Positions 5,624 to 26,432 of a stretch of 64,000 nt of DNA are shown here, piece after piece. The position numbers were made by a program, and so were the translations under genes. Origin of the DNA: Escherichia coli (GTDB lineage Bacteria > Pseudomonadota > Gammaproteobacteria > Enterobacterales > Enterobacteriaceae). The DNA lies in assembly GCF_022846255.1 (NCBI RefSeq), contig NZ_AP025682.1; one strand, written 5' to 3'. The notes under the pieces are model-generated. The model was given only the letters and a program-made list of their open reading frames with translations, searched no databases and was not told the DNA's origin. Positions within the stretch are counted from its first letter, which is position 1. Every line of letters begins with the position of its first letter.

Positions 5624-7906
5624 ATGGAAAACAATCGCAATTTCCCTGCCAGACAATTTCATTCGCTCACGTTCTTTGCCGGTCTTTGTATTGGTATTAC
5701 GCCTGTGGCACAGGCACTCGCTGCCGAAGGGCAAGCTAACGCGGATGACACGCTGGTTGTCGAAGCATCAACGCCTTCGCTTTATGCGCCACAACAATCT
5801 GCCGATCCGAAATTCTCGCGTCCGGTAGCGGATACTACCCGCACGATGACGGTGATTTCTGAACAAGTGATTAAAGATCAGGGTGCAACCAACCTTACCG
5901 ACGCACTCAAAAACGTCCCCGGCGTGGGTGCGTTTTTTGCGGGTGAGAACGGTAACTCCACCACTGGCGACGCCATTTATATGCGCGGTGCCGATACCTC
6001 TAACAGTATTTATATCGATGGCATTCGCGATATCGGCAGCGTCTCGCGCGACACCTTCAATACCGAGCAGGTCGAAGTAATTAAAGGGCCGTCCGGCACC
6101 GACTACGGGCGCAGCGCACCGACAGGCTCGATCAATATGATCAGCAAACAGCCGCGCAATGATTCCGGCATTGACGCCTCCGCCAGTATTGGCAGCGCCT
6201 GGTTCCGCCGCGGCACGCTGGACGTCAATCAGGTCATTGGTGATACCACTGCGGTGCGCCTGAATGTAATGGGCGAAAAAACGCACGATGCCGGACGCGA
6301 CAAAGTCAAAAATGAGCGTTACGGCGTCGCCCCTTCTGTCGCTTTTGGCCTTGGTACAGCGAATCGTTTGTATCTTAATTATCTGCATGTCACCCAGCAC
6401 AACACGCCAGACGGCGGCATTCCGACCATCGGTTTACCGGGTTATTCTGCCCCATCTGCGGGAACAGCAGCCCTGAATCATTCCGGAAAAGTTGATACTC
6501 ATAACTTTTACGGCACAGATTCCGATTACGACGATTCGACCACCGACACCGCTACCATGCGTTTTGAGCACGACATCAACGATAACACCACCATTCGCAA
6601 CACTACGCGTTGGTCGCGCGTAAAGCAGGATTACCTGATGACGGCGATTATGGGTGGAGCGTCGAATATTACCCAGCCCACCAGCGATGTGAATAGCTGG
6701 ACGTGGTCACGCACGGCGAATACCAAAGATGTGAGTAACAAAATTCTCACCAACCAGACCAACCTGACCTCGACGTTCTATACCGGCGCTATCGGTCATG
6801 ATCTCAGTACCGGCGTGGAATTTACCCGCGAAACACAGACTAACTATGGCGTTAATCCGGTGACGTTACCGGCGGTAAATATTTATCATCCTGACAGCAG
6901 CATTCATCCCGGCGGCCTGACGCGCAACGGCGCAAACGCCAATGGTCAGACGGATACCTTCGCAATTTATGCCTTCGATACGCTGCAAATCACCCGTGAT
7001 TTTGAGCTGAACGGCGGGATCCGTCTGGATAATTATCATACTGAATATGACAGTGCTACCGCCTGCGGCGGCAGCGGGCGCGGTGCCATCACCTGCCCTG
7101 CTGGCGTGGCAAAAGGTTCTCCGGTCACCACCGTCGACACCGCCAAGTCGGGCAATCTGGTGAACTGGAAAGCCGGGGCGCTGTATCACCTGACGGAAAA
7201 CGGCAATGTCTATATTAACTATGCCGTTTCCCAGCAGCCGCCGGGCGGCAACAACTTCGCCCTTGCGCAGTCTGGCAGCGGTAACAGTGCCAACCGCACC
7301 GATTTTAAACCACAAAAAGCCAACACCAGCGAGATTGGCACCAAATGGCAGGTTCTGGATAAACGCCTGCTACTTACCGCCGCGCTGTTCCGTACTGATA
7401 TTGAAAATGAAGTTGAGCAAAATGATGACGGGACTTATTCGCAATATGGTAAGAAACGTGTCGAAGGCTACGAGATATCCGTGGCCGGGAATATCACCCC
7501 CGCATGGCAGATGATTGGCGGCTATACCCAGCAAAAAGCAACTATCAAAAACGGCAAAGATGTTGCCCAGGATGGTTCCTCATCGCTGCCGTATACCCCG
7601 GAACACGCCTTCACCTTATGGAGCCAGTATCAGGCAACCGATGATATTTCTGTTGGTGCGGGCGCACGGTATATCGGCAGTATGCATAAAGTTTCAGACG
7701 GCGCGGTGGGGACGCCAGCATTTACCGAAGGTTATTGGGTCGCCGACGCCAAACTGGGGTATCGGGTTAATCGCAATCTCGACTTCCAGCTAAACGTCTA
7801 CAACCTGTTTGATACCGATTACGTCGCCTCAATCAATAAGAGCGGCTACCGTTATCACCCGGGCGAGCCAAGAACCTTCTTGCTCACAGCTAATATGCAT
7901 TTCTGA
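5624..7906 (+). CDS. fiu: TonB-dependent catecholate siderophore receptor Fiu
   Basis: 760-aa ORF, signal peptide, TonB box, plug and beta-barrel, C-terminal aromatic residue; Fur box upstream. Confidence 0.96.
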   Translation: MENNRNFPARQFHSLTFFAGLCIGITPVAQALAAEGQANADDTLVVEASTPSLYAPQQSADPKFSRPVADTTRTMTVISEQVIKDQGATNLTDALKNVPGVGAFFAGENGNSTTGDAIYMRGADTSNSIYIDGIRDIGSVSRDTFNTEQVEVIKGPSGTDYGRSAPTGSINMISKQPRNDSGIDASASIGSAWFRRGTLDVNQVIGDTTAVRLNVMGEKTHDAGRDKVKNERYGVAPSVAFGLGTANRLYLNYLHVTQHNTPDGGIPTIGLPGYSAPSAGTAALNHSGKVDTHNFYGTDSDYDDSTTDTATMRFEHDINDNTTIRNTTRWSRVKQDYLMTAIMGGASNITQPTSDVNSWTWSRTANTKDVSNKILTNQTNLTSTFYTGAIGHDLSTGVEFTRETQTNYGVNPVTLPAVNIYHPDSSIHPGGLTRNGANANGQTDTFAIYAFDTLQITRDFELNGGIRLDNYHTEYDSATACGGSGRGAITCPAGVAKGSPVTTVDTAKSGNLVNWKAGALYHLTENGNVYINYAVSQQPPGGNNFALAQSGSGNSANRTDFKPQKANTSEIGTKWQVLDKRLLLTAALFRTDIENEVEQNDDGTYSQYGKKRVEGYEISVAGNITPAWQMIGGYTQQKATIKNGKDVAQDGSSSLPYTPEHAFTLWSQYQATDDISVGAGARYIGSMHKVSDGAVGTPAFTEGYWVADAKLGYRVNRNLDFQLNVYNLFDTDYVASINKSGYRYHPGEPRTFLLTANMHF

Positions 7907-7956
7907 TTCAGATGTGGGGCGCAAGGCTCACTAATGTTGATGGCGAGAGCAGGACT

Positions 7957-8054
7957 GCCTGATGCGCTGCGCTTATCAGGCCTACAAGGTTGTGCAATAC
8001 ACTGAATTCACATCATTTGGTAGGCCGGATAAGGCGTTCACGCCGCATCCGGCA
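7957..8054. repeat. REP elements (BIME-like pair) between fiu and ybiX
   Basis: gcctgatgcgctgcgcttatcaggcctaca and gtaggccggataaggcgttcacgccgcatccggca match the REP consensus. Confidence 0.85.
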
Positions 8055-8087
8055 CCTGAGCACCATTGCCTGCTGTTAAAAATCGGT

Positions 8088-8110
8088 GTGGGGCGCAGGC
8101 CCCACTTTTT
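8088..8110 (+). terminator. terminator-like hairpin plus T-run immediately upstream of the ybiX RBS
   Basis: gtggggcgcaggccccac followed by TTTTT, 12 nt before the ybiX ATG; the Shine-Dalgarno ggag lies just after the T-run. Confidence 0.5.
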
Positions 8111-8121
8111 GGAGAACTTGT

Positions 8122-8799
8122 ATGATGTACCACATTCCCGGCGTGTTATCGCCACAGGACGTCGCCCGTTTTCGCGAACAACTGGAACAAGCCGAATGGG
8201 TGGATGGGCGCGTCACCACCGGCGCACAAGGTGCGCAAGTTAAGAACAATCAACAAGTAGACACCCGCAGCGCCCTGTACGCCGCCCTGCAAAATGAGGT
8301 GCTGAACGCGGTTAACCAACATGCTTTGTTCTTTGCCGCGGCCTTGCCGCGTACCCTTTCCACGCCGCTGTTTAATCGCTATCAGAACAATGAAACCTAT
8401 GGTTTTCATGTGGATGGCGCAGTACGCAGCCATCCACAAAACGGCTGGATGCGCACTGACCTTTCTGCCACGCTGTTTTTAAGCGATCCAGAAAGCTACG
8501 ACGGCGGCGAACTGGTCGTTAATGACACCTTCGGGCAACATCGGGTAAAACTCCCGGCAGGCGATCTGGTGTTGTATCCCTCCAGCAGCCTGCATTGCGT
8601 GACACCCGTAACCCGCGGCGTGCGAGTGGCATCATTTATGTGGATCCAGTCGATGATCCGCGATGATAAAAAGCGCGCCATGCTGTTTGAACTGGACAAC
8701 AATATTCAGTCGCTGAAAAGCCACTACGGCGAAAGTGAAGAGATCCTGTCGCTGCTCAATCTTTATCATAATCTGCTGCGGGAATGGTCGGAGATCTGA
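8122..8799 (+). CDS. ybiX: PKHD-type Fe(II)/2-oxoglutarate-dependent hydroxylase YbiX
   Basis: ORF track 8086-8799; start at MMYHIPGVL gives 225 aa; HxD...H iron-binding motif context; downstream of fiu as in the known fiu-ybiX unit. Confidence 0.92.
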
Positions 8800-8872
8800 C
8801 GCTTGAACTGCCCGAGTTCGTCCCTATATTAGCTACACTTAACTGTACAAGCATTGATATGGGGAGGACGAT

Positions 8873-9139
8873 ATGGCATCCGGTTGGGCTAATGATGACG
8901 CCGTCAACGAACAGATCAACAGTACAATTGAAGATGCGATTGCCCGCGCTCGGGGTGAAATTCCGCGTGGCGAAAGCCTGTATGAATGTGAAGAGTGCGG
9001 AGCCCTCATCCCGCAGGCCCGTCGGGAAGCCATTCCTGGCGTGCGCTTATGCATTCATTGTCAGCAGGAGAAAGATTTACAAAAACCAGATTATACAGGA
9101 TATAATCGCAGAGGTTCGAAAGACAGCCAGTTACGTTAA
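8873..9139 (+). CDS. ybiI: DksA/TraR-family C4-type zinc-finger protein YbiI
   Basis: 88-aa ORF with CxxC-N17-CxxC (CEECG...CIHCQ). Confidence 0.9.
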   Translation: MASGWANDDAVNEQINSTIEDAIARARGEIPRGESLYECEECGALIPQARREAIPGVRLCIHCQQEKDLQKPDYTGYNRRGSKDSQLR

Positions 9140-9403
9140 CTACAACTGGCGGGATGTATAGCGAATATAATTTGGATTTTGCGTGGCATTCCGTGCCTTT
9201 AACGCTACCGTGACTGCCACGCGGTATAAAACAAGTTCATAAGTACAACAAATAAATGGTTTATCAGTATGTTAGATATCAATCAATTTATTTGAACAAG
9301 GCGGTCAATTCTCTTCGATTTTATCTCTCGAAAAAAAACGTGATACTCATCACATCGACGAAACAACGTCACTTATACAAAAATCACCTGCGAGAGATTA
9401 ATT

Positions 9404-9664
9404 ATGAAAACTATCAATACTGTTGTTGCTGCTATGGCTCTTTCAACTCTGTCATTTGGCGTGTTCGCGGCGGAACCGGTAACGGCATCCCAGGCACAGA
9501 ACATGAATAAAATCGGCGTGGTTTCTGCCGATGGCGCATCCACCCTCGATGCCCTGGAAGCGAAACTGGCTGAGAAAGCCGCGGCGGCCGGTGCCAGTGG
9601 ATACAGCATTACTTCCGCCACCAACAACAATAAATTAAGCGGTACTGCGGTAATTTATAAGTAA
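9404..9664 (+). CDS. ybiJ: DUF1471 (YdgH/BhsA/McbA family) periplasmic protein YbiJ
   Basis: 86-aa ORF, signal peptide, C-terminal ...GTAVIYK; paralog of mcbA. Confidence 0.92.
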   Translation: MKTINTVVAAMALSTLSFGVFAAEPVTASQAQNMNKIGVVSADGASTLDALEAKLAEKAAAAGASGYSITSATNNNKLSGTAVIYK

Positions 9665-9667
9665 TTC

Positions 9668-9744
9668 GTAGGACGGATAAGGCGTTTACGCCGCATCCGG
9701 CAACAGATGCCTGATGCGACGCTACCGCGTCTTATCAGACCTAC
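9668..9744. repeat. REP elements downstream of ybiJ
   Basis: gtaggacggataaggcgtttacgccgcatccggca and gcctgatgcgacgctaccgcgtcttatcagacctac. Confidence 0.85.
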
Positions 9745-9864
9745 AAAATCCGAACCGTTGGCTGGATCAGGCGTTTACGCTACGTTCAGCACAAGTATTT
9801 CCCTGTCTGTTTGCCGACAGACGCATATGCTCTAACCCTCATTGATCCTATGTTACCCTTGTTT

Positions 9865-9892
9865 GCCCGTCCGCCACTGGACGGGCTTTTTT

Positions 9893-9894
<2 letters not shown>
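9865..9894 (+). terminator. intrinsic terminator between convergent ybiJ and ybiC
   Basis: gcccgtccgccactggacgggc followed by TTTTTTTT. Confidence 0.7.
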
Positions 9895-12081
<2,187 letters not shown>

Positions 12082-20912: not shown

Positions 20913-22019
20913 ATGTTTCATCGCTTATGGACGTTAATCCGCAAAGAGTTGCAGTCGCTGCTGCGCGAACCGCAAACCCGCGCAATTCTGATTTTACCCG
21001 TGCTGATTCAGGTGATCCTGTTCCCGTTCGCCGCCACGCTGGAAGTGACCAACGCCACCATCGCCATCTACGATGAAGATAACGGCGAGCACTCGGTAGA
21101 ACTTACTCAACGTTTTGCCCGCGCCAGCGCCTTTACCCATGTGCTGCTGCTGAAAAGCCCGCAGGAGATCCGCCCGACCATCGACACACAAAAGGCGTTA
21201 CTACTGGTGCGTTTCCCGGCTGACTTCTCGCGCAAACTGGATACCTTCCAGACCGCGCCGTTGCAGTTGATCCTCGACGGGCGTAACTCCAACAGTGCGC
21301 AAATTGCCGCCAACTACCTGCAACAGATCGTCAAAAATTATCAGCAGGAGCTGCTGGAAGGAAAACCGAAACCCAACAACAGCGAGCTGGTGGTACGCAA
21401 CTGGTATAACCCGAATCTCGACTACAAATGGTTTGTGGTGCCGTCGCTGATCGCCATGATCACCACTATCGGCGTAATGATCGTCACTTCACTTTCCGTC
21501 GCCCGCGAACGTGAACAAGGTACGCTCGATCAGTTGCTGGTTTCGCCCCTCACCACCTGGCAGATATTCATCGGCAAAGCCGTACCGGCATTAATTGTCG
21601 CCACCTTCCAGGCCACCATTGTGCTGGCGATTGGTATCTGGGCGTATCAAATCCCCTTCGCCGGATCGCTGGCGCTGTTCTACTTCACGATGGTGATTTA
21701 CGGTTTATCGCTGGTGGGATTCGGTCTGTTGATTTCATCACTCTGTTCAACACAACAGCAGGCGTTTATCGGCGTGTTTGTCTTTATGATGCCCGCCATT
21801 CTCCTTTCCGGTTACGTTTCGCCGGTGGAAAACATGCCAGTGTGGCTGCAAAATCTGACGTGGATTAACCCTATTCGCCACTTTACGGACATTACCAAGC
21901 AGATTTATTTGAAGGATGCGAGTCTGGATATTGTGTGGAATAGTTTGTGGCCGCTACTGGTGATAACGGCCACGACAGGGTCAGCGGCGTACGCGATGTT
22001 TAGACGTAAGGTGATGTAA
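20913..22019 (+). CDS. ybhR: ABC-2 type transporter permease YbhR
   Basis: 368-aa ORF, paralogous to YbhS. Confidence 0.92.
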
Positions 22020-22391
22020 CTTCTTATCTTTCGCCAGCAAAGACACTACCGCAGGGCCGGCAAGGATTGCCAGCCCTGCAATTGCCAGCACAAAGTTGTT
22101 TTCCAGTACGCGGGACAACAGCCACAGAACAATCAGCGCTGCGCCAAAATACCAGGTCGTGGTCAGCTCTTCCAGCACGTCTGCCACCTCACGCCAGCGT
22201 TGCTCGGGGTGGCGCTGAAACACCAGCATCATCACTACCGTGACACAATACAGTGCGCATAATCCTACGCCGACGTGAACCAGAGTTTTACTCATCCAGC
22301 CCACCACCAGCAGCGCCACTACCAGTAAATGCAACATAATCTGCCAGCAACTTAGGCCAGTTGCGACACGAACACGTTGTTGCCACTTCAT
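21981..22391 (-). CDS. ybhQ: inner membrane protein YbhQ
   Basis: 136-aa hydrophobic ORF convergent with and overlapping the ybhR 3' end. Confidence 0.85.
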
Positions 22392-22439
22392 GGCTTCTCT
22401 CCTGAAGAATTTATCTCTACTTATTCAGAGTACCGAACT

Positions 22440-22457
22440 TTACGGAAAATTCCGTAA
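22440..22457. promoter_or_regulatory. perfect inverted repeat ttacggaa-aa-ttccgtaa in the divergent ybhQ/ybhP promoter region
   Basis: 8-bp perfect arms with 2-bp spacer; 49 nt upstream of ybhQ and 67 nt upstream of ybhP; binding factor unknown. Confidence 0.4.
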
Positions 22458-22523
22458 GACCGCACCTTTTTGTGACGCCGACTACACTATTTCAATGAGA
22501 TAAGAGGCAAAGACAGGAAAATT

Positions 22524-23285
22524 ATGCCCGATCAAACACAACAATTTTCGTTCAAGGTGCTCACCATCAATATTCACAAAGGCTTTACCGCGTTTAACCG
22601 ACGCTTCATTTTGCCGGAACTTCGCGACGCCGTGCGTACCGTCAGCGCCGATATTGTTTGCCTGCAGGAAGTGATGGGCGCGCACGAAGTTCATCCGCTG
22701 CATGTGGAAAACTGGCCCGATACCTCGCACTACGAGTTTCTCGCCGACACCATGTGGAGCGATTTCGCCTACGGTCGCAATGCCGTATACCCGGAAGGAC
22801 ATCACGGTAACGCCGTTCTTTCACGTTATCCCATTGAACATTATGAGAATCGTGATGTTTCGGTCGATGGTGCGGAAAAGCGCGGCGTGCTCTACTGCCG
22901 CATTGTGCCGCCGATGACCGGGAAAGCGATTCATGTGATGTGCGTACATCTGGGCCTGCGTGAGGCGCACCGTCAGGCGCAGCTTGCGATGCTCGCCGAA
23001 TGGGTGAATGAGCTACCGGACGGCGAACCGGTATTGGTAGCGGGTGATTTCAACGACTGGCGGCAAAAAGCTAATCATCCGTTAAAAGTGCAGGCCGGGC
23101 TGGATGAGATTTTTACCCGCGCCCACGGACGCCCGGCGCGCACGTTTCCGGTGCAATTTCCTCTACTACGTCTGGACAGGATCTACGTCAAAAATGCCAG
23201 CGCCAGCGCGCCAACCGCGTTGCCGCTGCGGACATGGCGACACCTTTCTGATCATGCCCCTTTAAGTGCGGAGATTCATTTATGA
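22524..23285 (+). CDS. ybhP: endonuclease/exonuclease/phosphatase (EEP) family protein YbhP
   Basis: 253-aa ORF with EEP-like motifs; first gene of ybhP-clsB-ybhN. Confidence 0.9.
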
Positions 23286-24523
23286 AATGTAGCTGGCGCG
23301 AAGGCAATAAGATCCAGTTGCTGGAAAACGGCGAGCAATATTATCCCGCGGTGTTTAAGGCGATTGGCGAGGCGCAAGAACGCATCATTCTTGAAACGTT
23401 TATCTGGTTTGAGGATGACGTCGGCAAACAGCTGCATGCGGCGCTATTGGCAGCAGCGCAACGCGGGGTAAAAGCGGAAGTCTTGCTGGATGGCTACGGT
23501 TCGCCGGATCTCAGCGATGAGTTTGTCAATGAACTGACGGCAGCTGGCGTGGTGTTCCGCTACTACGATCCCCGCCCTCGCCTTTTTGGTATGCGCACCA
23601 ATGTGTTTCGCCGGATGCATCGCAAAATTGTGGTGATCGACGCGCGTATCGCCTTTATTGGCGGGCTGAATTACTCCGTCGAGCATATGTCCAGCTACGG
23701 CCCGGAGGCCAAACAGGATTACGCGGTACGCCTCGAAGGGCCGATTGTCGAAGATATTCTCCAGTTTGAGCTGGAAAACCTGCCAGGACAAAGCGCGGCG
23801 CGACGCTGGTGGCGACGTCATCATAAAGCGGAAGAGAACCGCCAGCCGGGAGAAGCGCAGGTATTGCTGGTCTGGCGCGATAACGAAGAACATCGCGATG
23901 ATATCGAACGTCACTATCTGAAAATGCTCACTCAGGCGCGGCGGGAAGTGATTATCGCCAACGCCTACTTCTTCCCCGGCTATCGTTTTTTACACGCCTT
24001 GCGTAAAGCGGCACGGCGCGGGGTGCGGATCAAACTGATCATTCAGGGCGAACCGGATATGCCGATTGTCAGAGTCGGCGCGCGTTTGCTGTATAACTAT
24101 CTGGTTAAAGGTGGCGTTCAGGTGTTTGAGTACCGCCGCCGCCCGCTCCACGGCAAAGTGGCATTGATGGACGATCACTGGGCGACAGTAGGGTCCAGTA
24201 ATCTCGATCCGCTCAGTTTGTCACTGAATCTCGAAGCAAATGTCATCATCCACGATCGTAATTTTAACCAGACGCTGCGCGATAATCTGAACGGCATTAT
24301 CGCCGCAGATTGTCAGCAGGTCGATGAGACCATGCTGCCGAAACGCACCTGGTGGAACCTGACCAAAAGCGTGCTGGCGTTCCACTTTTTACGCCACTTC
24401 CCGGCGCTGGTGGGCTGGCTTCCGGCGCACACGCCACGTCTGGCGCAGGTTGATCCCCCCGCACAACCGACAATGGAAACGCAGGATCGGGTAGAAACTG
24501 AAAACACGGGGGTAAAACCCTGA
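23282..24523 (+). CDS. clsB: cardiolipin synthase B (phospholipase D family)
   Basis: 413-aa ORF with two HxK(x)4D motifs (HRKIVVID..., HGKVALMDD...); 4-nt overlap with ybhP. Confidence 0.95.
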
Positions 24524-25479
24524 TGAGTAAATCACACCCGCGCTGGCGCTTAGCAAAGAAGATCCTCACCTGGCTGTTTTTTATCGCGGTGATTGTGTTG
24601 CTGGTGGTCTACGCCAAAAAAGTGGACTGGGAAGAGGTCTGGAAGGTCATCCGCGACTACAATCGCGTTGCGCTGCTTAGTGCGGTCGGGCTGGTGGTCG
24701 TCAGTTATCTGATTTACGGTTGCTACGACCTGCTCGCCCGTTTCTACTGCGGTCACAAACTGGCGAAGCGCCAGGTGATGCTGGTGTCGTTTATCTGCTA
24801 CGCCTTCAACCTGACACTCAGTACCTGGGTCGGCGGCATTGGTATGCGCTATCGTTTGTACTCCCGACTGGGGTTACCGGGCAGCACTATTACGCGGATT
24901 TTTTCGCTCAGTATTACCACCAACTGGCTAGGCTATATTTTGCTAGCGGGGGTTATCTTTACCGCAGGCGTGGTGGAGTTGCCGGATCACTGGTATGTCG
25001 ATCAAACTACGCTGCGTATTCTCGGTATTGGCTTACTGATGATTATCGCGGTTTATTTGTGGTTTTGCGCTTTCGCGAAGCACCGCCATATGACCATCAA
25101 AGGGCAAAAGCTGGTGCTGCCTTCGTGGAAATTCGCCCTCGCCCAGATGCTGATTTCCAGCGTTAACTGGATGGTAATGGGAGCGATTATCTGGCTGTTA
25201 CTTGGTCAAAGCGTGAACTATTTCTTTGTACTGGGCGTGTTGCTGGTTAGTAGTATTGCTGGCGTCATCGTGCATATTCCGGCGGGAATTGGTGTGCTGG
25301 AAGCGGTGTTTATCGCGCTACTGGCTGGGGAGCATACCTCCAAAGGCACAATTATCGCCGCCCTGCTCGCTTACCGTGTGCTGTATTACTTTATCCCACT
25401 GCTGCTGGCGCTGATCTGTTACCTGTTGCTGGAAAGCCAGGCGAAGAAGCTACGGGCGAAAAATAAAGCGGCGATGTGA
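24523..25479 (+). CDS. ybhN: inner membrane protein YbhN (UPF0104 / LPG-synthase-TM-like)
   Basis: 318-aa polytopic membrane ORF; start overlaps the clsB stop. Confidence 0.9.
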   Translation: MSKSHPRWRLAKKILTWLFFIAVIVLLVVYAKKVDWEEVWKVIRDYNRVALLSAVGLVVVSYLIYGCYDLLARFYCGHKLAKRQVMLVSFICYAFNLTLSTWVGGIGMRYRLYSRLGLPGSTITRIFSLSITTNWLGYILLAGVIFTAGVVELPDHWYVDQTTLRILGIGLLMIIAVYLWFCAFAKHRHMTIKGQKLVLPSWKFALAQMLISSVNWMVMGAIIWLLLGQSVNYFFVLGVLLVSSIAGVIVHIPAGIGVLEAVFIALLAGEHTSKGTIIAALLAYRVLYYFIPLLLALICYLLLESQAKKLRAKNKAAM

Positions 25480-25514: not shown

Positions 25515-26228
25515 CTAATGAAAAAACCGCGTATGCCTTTGCCAGACAAGCGTTATAGCTATAGTGGCAAGAATCCCAAAGAAGCCGATAAAATAGTAAT
25601 AGAGTGTTAATGCACCTATAAAAGCACAACGAACTGAACTCCATAATTCTTCACTATGGCTTTTTCCTGTCAGTTCAAGGAGCTTATTTCGTCCATGCGA
25701 GATAATGCCTGACCATAAGACAATCATTAAACAACTTATTACCCAAATGGGTCGTTCACTCATTAATGTGGCATTCACGATGATTACCAGGGCCAACCCT
25801 GTCAACGTCATCATAATGATAAAACGGTGAGAACCAGGATCAAATTTAAACAATAGACCTGCCAGCATACTGATTAAAAACATCGATCCCGCAGTGCTGA
25901 ACACGACGATAATGGCAGATACAGGCGCTAAACTCGCAACGACAATCGCCACCAAAGAGATTAAAAACAAATATATTACGCCCGCGATGGCGGTATTTAT
26001 CTTGTTGATATCTTTACTTAAGCCATACATAGAAAGTAATAATAATCCTATAGCAACATACATTTGCGGTGAATCATATTTTGTTGCCGTAATTTCGAGA
26101 TACTTAGCGCCCCAGGCCAGCCCTGCGGTTGCCACCAAACCCAAAGCGGTAATGAGCCATATGCCGTTTAATATCCTGGCTTCGTGCTGAAAATCTACTT
26201 TATTGCTATTTTGCGAGTATGATTCCAT
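25515..26228 (-). CDS. ybhM: BAX inhibitor-1 (TMBIM) family membrane protein YbhM
   Basis: ORF track 25515-26255; 237 aa from MESYSQNSNK; seven predicted TM segments; visibly AT-rich. Confidence 0.88.
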   Translation of the reverse strand: MESYSQNSNKVDFQHEARILNGIWLITALGLVATAGLAWGAKYLEITATKYDSPQMYVAIGLLLLSMYGLSKDINKINTAIAGVIYLFLISLVAIVVASLAPVSAIIVVFSTAGSMFLISMLAGLLFKFDPGSHRFIIMMTLTGLALVIIVNATLMSERPIWVISCLMIVLWSGIISHGRNKLLELTGKSHSEELWSSVRCAFIGALTLYYYFIGFFGILATIAITLVWQRHTRFFH

Positions 26229-26432
26229 TCTTTTAGTTGTCCTTAGAAAAAACATTAATATTCACCATCAATAAATTTAAAACTACGCATACAAAATACT
26301 TTTGCATTTATGGATACAGAAAACGCTTCCACTCGTCCATAAGGCATATTTTATACCTGGTACTTGTTAAGTGTCGTTTTTAATAAGAAAAAAATCCCGA
26401 CACATGGCCGGGATATTGATGGTGAAAAAGAA

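Follow-up and report, generated by a model that had tools for sequence, protein, structure and literature searches.

The ybhP-clsB-ybhN operon of Escherichia coli lies at positions 22,524 to 25,479 of the window analysed here, a stretch of 64,000 nucleotides of E. coli chromosome from contig NZ_AP025682.1 (RefSeq assembly GCF_022846255.1). It probably encodes a stress-induced, translationally coupled module of three proteins which acts when growth stops, altering phospholipid head groups and redistributing them. YbhP is a predicted phosphoesterase of the endonuclease/exonuclease/phosphatase (EEP) superfamily, ClsB is a cardiolipin synthase of the phospholipase D (PLD) type and YbhN is a membrane protein related to the transport domain of MprF. 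The roles of ClsB and YbhN rest on published experiments and on homology; the role proposed for YbhP is drawn from gene linkage, gene fusion and intact catalytic residues. The locus itself, and the idea of a lipid module for ClsB and YbhN, are already known.

The region is present in 5,422 of the 5,426 complete E. coli genomes (coverage of at least 80%), and over 3.3 kb it is 100% identical to that of E. coli O150:H6 FEX669. It is annotated in E. coli in the order ybhQ, ybhP-clsB-ybhN, ybhM. The three genes are a core-genome operon, far beyond chance. An earlier note on this DNA had described overlaps of 4 and 1 nucleotides between the genes, and the exact coordinates and the ATGA and TGATG junctions bear this out (Table 1). 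Each of the three starts is preceded by a Shine-Dalgarno-like purine run, located inside the upstream gene or the leader.

Table 1. Features of the ybhP-clsB-ybhN locus (positions in the window)
Feature	Position	Strand	Remarks
ybhQ	21981-22391	-	small inner-membrane protein (PF11076); divergent, shares the 132-bp regulatory region with ybhP
Perfect inverted repeat	22440-22457	.	TTACGGAA-AA-TTCCGTAA (8+2+8), ybhQ/ybhP intergenic region; candidate operator, from sequence
Promoter block	22469-22488	+	TTTGTGAC-N5-ACTACACT; invariant in 13/13 aligned Enterobacterales sequences, Erwinia and Pantoea included
ybhP	22524-23285	+	253 amino acids (list of open reading frames)
ybhP/clsB stop/start overlap	23282-23285	+	ATGA, 4 nt; junction ...catttATGAaatg
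clsB	23282-24523	+	413 amino acids (list of open reading frames)
clsB/ybhN junction	24521-24525	+	TGATG, one shared base at 24523; ...cccTGATGagt
ybhN (pplT)	24523-25479	+	318 amino acids (list of open reading frames)
ybhM	25515-26255	-	Bax1-I/YccA family; GC content 0.40 against about 0.55 in ybhP-clsB-ybhN

The arrangement is conserved outside E. coli. A scan with the YbhP alignment, using one genome per species, gave 80 loci from Enterobacterales, Pseudomonas, Stutzerimonas, Cellvibrio, Marinimicrobium and many Burkholderiales. Neighbouring genes were assigned by tblastn and Pfam only, since longest-open-reading-frame calling gave antisense artefacts in high-GC loci. In 69 of the 80 loci, which belong to the Enterobacterales, Pseudomonadales, Cellvibrionales and Burkholderiales, the EEP, PLD and YbhN genes follow each other in this order on the same strand, with homologue identities of 49-87% for ClsB and 36-89% for YbhN; in one other locus the contig ends shortly after the start of clsB. 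The first two genes overlap by ATGA or GTGA in the loci of Enterobacter, Mangrovibacter, Bordetella, Rhizobacter, Variovorax, Stutzerimonas and Cellvibrio.

More distant relatives of YbhP retain part of this association. Among eight sampled metagenomic members of the family (37-42% identity), five have a PLD gene adjacent or fused to the EEP gene: P0220 (locus L001) is an EEP::PLD fusion of 648 amino acids, L087 and L089 have the EEP gene followed by the PLD gene, L002 has a gene of the inositol-monophosphatase family followed by PLD and then EEP, and L085 has an EEP gene and a convergent PLD gene. The three remaining loci show no PLD gene within the short sequence at hand. Four other fusion clusters (P0271, P0272, P0274 and P0284) are 30-42% identical to P0220. 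The PLD partners of the distant EEPs include ClsA-like proteins which have a PLDc_N domain.

No YbhN homologue is found in the sampled distant loci. In L085, the EEP gene is overlapped by one of the DedA/VTT type, and L001 has a DedA fusion next to its EEP::PLD fusion; in other distant loci the neighbour is a membrane protein of the MFS or DUF2238 type. The DedA family includes some scramblases (TMEM41B and VMP1, for instance), and the presence of DedA in the place of YbhN looks like a non-orthologous replacement of the translocator. The distant loci keep EEP and PLD while the membrane partner varies, which suggests that the conserved core is the EEP-PLD pair. The gene order in 69 of the 80 loci, the EEP::PLD fusions and the co-induction described below strongly back the membrane lipid remodelling module which the earlier note had proposed.

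Several variants of the locus were observed. A DUF72 (YecE-like) gene lies directly 5' of the YbhP homologue, often overlapping it, in Pseudomonas, Stutzerimonas and Cellvibrio, and a four-gene cluster DUF72-EEP-PLD-YbhN occurs in 20 loci (e.g., L056:6018-6935, L079:6075-6992 and L029:6015-6941 for the DUF72 gene); the E. coli ybhP locus has no DUF72 gene. In Cellvibrio (L079:7001-12311) a single YbhP gene is followed by a tandem ClsB-YbhN-ClsB-YbhN, and a metagenome-assembled genome of Ramlibacter (L075) has two consecutive YbhN genes. A NUDIX hydrolase gene is located 5' of an EEP::PLD fusion in one metagenomic lineage (L091:4561-6419, L092:3073-6491), where the gene calls look fragmented, and an EEP::NUDIX fusion protein exists (P0276). 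Taken with YmdB, the macrodomain partner of ClsC, the NUDIX partners hint that a substrate or regulator of Cls-type enzymes might be linked to nucleotides.

ClsB matches the NCBIfam equivalog model NF008427 with 749.4 bits where 281 is the cut-off (residues 1-408, out of 409 positions in the model). It has two PLDc_2 domains (Pfam), and the duplicated HKD motif which had been read in it is indeed present as two HxK(x)4D motifs, HRKIVVID at 113 (H113) and HGKVALMD at 290 (H290). The protein has no transmembrane (TM) helix (no hydropathy segment of 1.6 or more) and no PLDc_N domain, unlike ClsA, and its sequence finds no match among the chains of the PDB. The H290A variant of ClsB is inactive in Salmonella, and a plasmid which carries the whole Salmonella operon restores and overproduces cardiolipin (CL) in a strain that lacks clsABC (PMC9241728). 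ClsB condenses two phosphatidylglycerols (PG) to CL and also makes PG from phosphatidylethanolamine (PE) and glycerol, ethanolamine being swapped out; this transphosphatidylation is energy-neutral and reversible (PMC8027125).

According to another study (PMC6446866), in Salmonella ClsB is essential for the production of 6-phosphatidyltrehalose (PT) and 6,6'-diphosphatidyltrehalose (diPT), and not for that of CL. In the same paper, trehalose as the direct acceptor of ClsB is an inference of its authors, and PT and diPT are made by four of six E. coli strains whose clsB coding sequences are identical. This suggests that there are requirements beyond clsB. The account of the module given in the earlier note stands as far as the link to lipids is concerned, but it had missed that ClsB is needed for trehalose phospholipids.

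YbhN is a polytopic inner-membrane protein which ends at residue 318, after TM8, and corresponds to transmembrane domain 1 (TMD1, TM1-8) of MprF. It matches the Pfam family LPG_synthase_TM (PF03706) with 56.4 bits (cut-off of 33.4) and covers the first 302 of the 841 positions of the NCBIfam model of bifunctional MprF, with 164 bits for a cut-off of 600. Residues 15-310 align to residues 40-342 of P. aeruginosa MprF (PaMprF) with an E-value of 6e-22. The second transmembrane domain (TMD2, TM9-14) and the C-terminal aminoacyl-PG synthase domain of MprF are not present in YbhN. Judged by its sequence, YbhN is a member of the MprF transport-domain family and not an MprF.

The AlphaFold2 model of YbhN, built on 27 family members (mean local confidence, pLDDT, of 87.9), matches six entries of the PDB, all of them MprF, with TM-scores of 0.73-0.77; the next match has an E-value of 0.03 and a TM-score of 0.17. 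The likeness to the membrane domain of lysyl-phosphatidylglycerol synthases which the earlier note had seen is therefore confirmed by the PF03706 score and the alignment of YbhN, over its full length, to MprF, and the structural comparison with the MprF flippase domain, which it had suggested, singles out MprF. PaMprF, the nearest relative with a solved structure, has a salt bridge linking TM7 with TM8 (E295-R319), two flanking tyrosines (Y318 and Y322) and a hinge proline in TM8 (P326), and it is a promiscuous and gradient-independent scramblase in a proteoliposome assay (PMC11980842). In the alignment, these residues correspond to E260, R285, Y284, Y288 and P292 of YbhN; E260, R285, Y288 and P292 do not vary among the 27 YbhN-family sequences, and at least 90% of these have Y284. 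The PaMprF study refers to YbhN as a transport domain that occurs on its own (PMC11980842).

Hauser et al. (2022, bioRxiv 10.1101/2022.03.11.483950) named YbhN PplT and proposed that it is a lipid translocator. Their two-hybrid experiments showed contacts of YbhN with ClsB and with PgpA/B/C, and strain CFT073 grows and competes less well when ybhN is deleted. In the same work, YbhP is described as a protein of unknown function. The statement of the earlier note that the roles of YbhP and YbhN were unresolved therefore still applies to YbhP, which is uncharacterised, but is partly out of date for YbhN. By analogy with PaMprF, YbhN is a putative phospholipid translocator or scramblase.

YbhP belongs to Pfam family Exo_endo_phos (PF03372; 83.3 bits for a cut-off of 24.5, E-value of 2.6e-23), has no TM segment and has a pI of 6.6. 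Its AlphaFold2 model (pLDDT of 95.7) confirms the four-layer alpha/beta sandwich fold of the EEPs. An exhaustive search of representative proteins with YbhP gave 4,417 clusters (50% identity), of which 381 have an E-value of 1e-30 or lower, nearly all of about 250 amino acids; the word-indexed protein search reached Enterobacterales orthologues only, and the distant members came from the exhaustive search. In an alignment of 42 YbhP members, down to 36% identity, residues N16, E49, H142, D175, N177, D218, D243 and H244 are invariant. The full catalytic set is therefore conserved, which argues that YbhP is an active enzyme rather than a scaffold. The same alignment reveals residues specific to the family, some of them invariant (G20, W78, Y83, G95, N96, R120 and W179) and others conserved at 90% or more (H18, K19, F21, G92 and H94). 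These sequence features argue for YbhP being a soluble Mg2+-dependent phosphoesterase of the EEP superfamily.

The substrate class of YbhP is not singled out by its fold. The comparison of the model with known structures gives scores of up to 28.6 with uncharacterised EEPs (4RUW), 24.9 with TDP2, 24.5 with human neutral sphingomyelinase, 23.8 with Nocturnin, 21.2 with the sphingomyelinase (SMase) C of Streptomyces, 20.9 with ExoIII and 17-18 with inositol 5-phosphatases, and Foldseek agrees. The earlier note had pointed out that the EEP fold also occurs in phospholipid-headgroup hydrolases, which the PF03372 score and the presence of SMases among the fold neighbours support. The comparison with SMase-like EEP enzymes, also suggested there, does not place YbhP in the SMase/phospholipase C (PLC)-like branch: the identity is about 21%, TDP2 and CCR4-type enzymes score equally, and YbhP is not closer to SMases than to EEPs which act on nucleic acids or nucleotides.

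The expression of the operon is consistent with a function when growth stops, and its co-induction (RpoS, ppGpp, envelope stress) is already known. The dependence of ybhPO on RpoS amounts to 251- and 7-fold (PMC2907692), and late in stationary phase clsB increases about 9-fold (PMC12846801). Joint induction of all three genes, as a unit and along with those of otsBA, treF and the osm group, is also documented (PMC10100675). Inhibition of LolCDE induces ybhP 17.6/33.1-fold, clsB 12.3/24.5-fold and ybhN 4.4/9.1-fold, together with genes that include Rcs- and sigma-S-controlled ones (PMC5105897). The earlier note had named a lack of co-expression with clsB as evidence against its proposal; these data document that ybhP and ybhN are expressed with clsB.

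The promoter is placed upstream of ybhP on the basis of cross-genus conservation. In the promoter block, CTACACT is a predicted sigma-S-type -10 element, with a C at -13 and a predicted start near 22495. A scan with the sigma-70 consensus gave no promoter on the + strand upstream of ybhP, and no terminator was detected after ybhN in the same scan. The centre of the inverted repeat is about 47 bp 5' of the predicted transcription start; the repeat is kept in 11 genera of Enterobacteriaceae and is degenerate in Pantoea and Erwinia. Its GGA-N4-TCC core resembles an RcsB box, and the repeat is a candidate operator. Such a repeat would fit the strong induction alongside the Rcs regulon upon inhibition of LolCDE. 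A sigma-E ChIP-seq peak is located on the ybhP/ybhQ intergenic region of Salmonella (PMC4577112). A sigma-E-type -35 element for this peak, GAACTT (22434-22439), was considered and rejected: it has no matching -10 element and is not conserved.

The following mechanism is proposed. The operon would be read from one sigma-S-type promoter 5' of ybhP and, as others have shown, is induced by stationary phase, ppGpp and envelope stress. ClsB, peripheral on the cytoplasmic leaflet, moves phosphatidyl groups from PG or PE to alcohols, namely PG and glycerol, as others have shown, and probably trehalose. YbhN would dock ClsB and let its product equilibrate across the two leaflets, cytoplasmic and periplasmic, with no input of energy, as PaMprF does; homology and the published two-hybrid contact suggest this. 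YbhP would act in the cytoplasm on the head-group phosphoester of the substrate or product of ClsB; this is the least certain step. The exchange catalysed by ClsB is near equilibrium, and coupled hydrolysis would push it one way or recycle its product. Cleavage of the PLC/SMase type is the preferred guess for YbhP and phosphatase-type trimming the alternative, but any specific chemistry is tentative at best. The EEP-PLD pair would be the core of the module and the membrane translocator its exchangeable third part.

Several observations weigh against this mechanism. To our knowledge, no enzymatic activity of YbhP has been demonstrated, and its fold neighbours are as much nucleases and nucleotide phosphodiesterases (TDP2, CCR4-type enzymes, ExoIII) as SMases. 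Ten of the 80 YbhP homologues are solo, with no PLD neighbour. In published work, CL content and proteome stayed the same under several conditions when clsB was deleted. According to PMC6446866, ClsB alone, expressed from pBAD, restored PT and diPT; the host retained its chromosomal ybhP, so that YbhP may still be required. In PaMprF, the groove exposed to the membrane sits between TMD1 and TMD2 (PMC11980842). YbhN lacks TMD2, and a protein that has TMD1 only may not scramble lipids by itself. Finally, the lipid pattern of the CFT073 ybhN mutant is unchanged on thin-layer chromatography (Hauser et al. 2022).

The neighbourhood of the triad in some lineages points to trehalose and alpha-glucan metabolism. 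In three genomes of Stutzerimonas, it sits between glgX and the convergent glgB-treS/pep2 (in locus L056: glgX 2-1696, DUF72 6018-6935, triad 7001-9980, glgB 12538-10364, treS/pep2 14708-12564), and in Cellvibrio glgX is 3 kb upstream. Eight solo YbhP homologues of Pseudomonas occupy the same glgX/glgB interval. In the four genomes where both were recovered they are second copies, 65-68% identical to the triad copy. In six of these eight loci (L072:3690-7732, L076, L077, L078, L081, which has an insertion, and L084), glgX and a gene for a PIG-L-family deacetylase lie upstream of the solo gene on its own strand, directly so in five loci. Six of the eight show a convergent glgB downstream, with treS/pep2 beyond it in all six; these counts depend on how far each locus extends. 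In these Pseudomonas loci, the glgA-glgX operon has an EEP and PIG-L (GlcNAc-PI de-N-acetylase-like) pair at its end. In P. aeruginosa PAO1, PA2154-PA2156 are presumably the orthologues of YbhN, ClsB and YbhP; a literature search on these three genes returned nothing relevant. On the published map, glgE, treS/pep2 and glgB are PA2151-2153 and glgX is PA2160, and the genes in between are not discussed (PMC8084333). The placement fits the need of ClsB for trehalose phospholipids and the co-induction of the E. coli operon with otsBA. The linkage is found in the Pseudomonadales and Cellvibrionales loci only and is absent from those of Enterobacterales and Burkholderiales; this narrow spread represents few independent events, and the trehalose link is therefore a lead and no proof.

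These observations raise the possibility, which we consider less likely than the mechanism proposed above, that what the module makes in the cell is phosphatidyl-sugar lipids (PT and diPT) rather than CL, with ClsB phosphatidylating trehalose that accumulates under stress, YbhP performing an obligatory sugar-phosphate or head-group step and YbhN exporting the bulky glycolipid to the outer leaflet. Co-induction with otsBA and treF (PMC10100675), the glg/tre position of the Stutzerimonas triad and of all eight Pseudomonas solo paralogues, and the predicted flippase role of YbhN-family proteins in the glycolipid operons GpgSDF and HexSDF (PMC12713373) are consistent with it. The confinement of the linkage to two orders, the overproduction of CL from the plasmid-borne operon (PMC9241728) and the ClsA-like partners of distant EEPs, which argue for a general role in Cls chemistry, weigh against it. 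Moreover, in PMC6446866, clsB homology is a poor predictor of diPT, and the ClsB homologues of Pseudomonas and Bordetella are 51-87% identical to that of S. Typhi. YbhP could also be a phosphomonoesterase that dephosphorylates a lipid intermediate made by ClsB, as in the PgsA/Pgp pair, or that frees the alcohol acceptor from a sugar phosphate. EEP monoesterases (inositol 5-phosphatases, nocturnin, ANGEL2) are among its fold neighbours, the inositol-monophosphatase-family gene precedes the PLD-EEP pair of L002, pgpA is 2 kb upstream of a solo homologue in Marinimicrobium (L068:4741-5232; same strand, the solo gene being followed by a transglutaminase-like gene) and YbhN contacts PgpA/B/C (Hauser et al. 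2022). This role seems unlikely, since no phosphorylated product of ClsB is known and E. coli already has three phosphatidylglycerophosphate phosphatases and OtsB.

YbhN, for its part, might not be a translocator but might anchor ClsB to the membrane or regulate it, and perhaps do the same for YbhP. Neither ClsB nor YbhP has a TM helix, YbhN binds ClsB in the two-hybrid assay (Hauser et al. 2022), one half of the PaMprF groove is made by TMD2, a domain that YbhN does not have, and the bulk lipid pattern of the ybhN mutant is unchanged. But the YbhN family conserves the MprF transport domain's salt bridge, tyrosines and hinge proline, and the replacement of YbhN by DedA, a family with scramblase members, suits transport better than docking, which makes a pure anchor rather doubtful. 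The last alternative is that YbhP is a DNA/RNA nuclease or a nucleotide phosphodiesterase, as in its older label "predicted DNase", and that its place in the operon is irrelevant to lipids. The characterised fold neighbours that score best include TDP2, CNOT6L, PDE12 and ExoIII, the sole match of its sequence among PDB chains is exonuclease III, with a marginal E-value of 0.0056, and NUDIX genes occur near some EEP::PLD fusions, with one EEP::NUDIX fusion. Against this, the order with the PLD neighbour is kept in 70 of the 80 loci, the EEP::PLD fusions are independent, the ATGA/GTGA overlap is conserved and a pI of 6.6 gives YbhP no basic, DNA-binding character. A nuclease is very improbable. 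The reading of the operon as a head-group-altering and -redistributing module is preferred here.

The genes that flank the operon are restricted to some of the lineages. The ybhQ gene is beside the triad in Enterobacterales only (14 of 15 Enterobacterales loci; it is absent in Acerihabitans). In the Enterobacterales loci that have a homologue of ybhL (74-88% identical), it is the sole Bax1-I homologue seen 3' of ybhN, and no close homologue of ybhM is found there. The ybhM gene is an insertion of the Escherichia lineage.

The module can be compared to several known systems. MprF (PDB 7DUW, 9GOE) also couples a head-group-modifying enzyme to the same transport fold, of which YbhN represents TM1-8. 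In MprF the enzyme is a fused tRNA-dependent aminoacyl transferase, whereas in the ybh operon it is a separate HKD transphosphatidylase; MprF has a TMD2 (TM9-14) which is missing in YbhN, the ybh operon adds a third protein, the EEP, and the aminoacyl-PG product of MprF is not made by E. coli. ClsC-YmdB of E. coli likewise consists of a stationary-phase HKD cardiolipin synthase and an upstream soluble protein with a hydrolase fold, which raises its output (PMC8027125). YmdB is a macrodomain protein and not an EEP, and no membrane translocator gene is attached to the pair. We know of no report that YbhP stimulates ClsB. The gpgSDF (glucosaminyl-PG of P. aeruginosa) and hexSDF (C. difficile) operons combine, as the ybh operon does, a synthase, a soluble processing hydrolase and a predicted flippase of the YbhN/AglD2 family (COG0392), but their synthase is a GT4 glycosyltransferase, their processing enzyme a deacetylase and their products cationic glycolipids (PMC12713373). 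Of the lipid phosphodiesterases with an EEP fold, neutral sphingomyelinases, ISC1 and bacterial SMase C differ from YbhP by their low identity (about 21%) and by the lack, in YbhP, of a membrane-anchoring segment.

In the literature searched, the breadth of the triad over beta- and gamma-proteobacteria, the EEP::PLD fusions, the substitution by DedA and the trehalose/alpha-glucan placement were not found. These comparative findings raise the priority of YbhP, yet they do not define a new kind of system. The conserved order, the fusions, the replacement by DedA and the trehalose/alpha-glucan cluster of pseudomonads are reasons to see in ybhP and ybhN more than bystanders of clsB. A bolder idea, to which we give little credence, is that the EEP-PLD pair and its exchangeable translocator (YbhN or DedA) form a widespread and unrecognised pathway, in which YbhP would be obligatory and which would lead from trehalose accumulated under stress, or from related alpha-glucan sugars (or sugar phosphates), to phosphatidyl-sugar lipids exposed to the periplasm. 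If this were true, the name "cardiolipin synthase B" would not suit what is the central enzyme in making glycophospholipids in three steps, and the pathway would account for the strain-dependent production of diPT, which the clsB sequence does not explain. The locus joins three questions: why E. coli has three cardiolipin synthases, what the true product of ClsB is, and how phospholipids move across the inner membrane. The ClsB-dependent diPT is an agonist of Mincle and is abundant in Salmonella Typhi, so that the route by which it is synthesised and exported is of medical interest.

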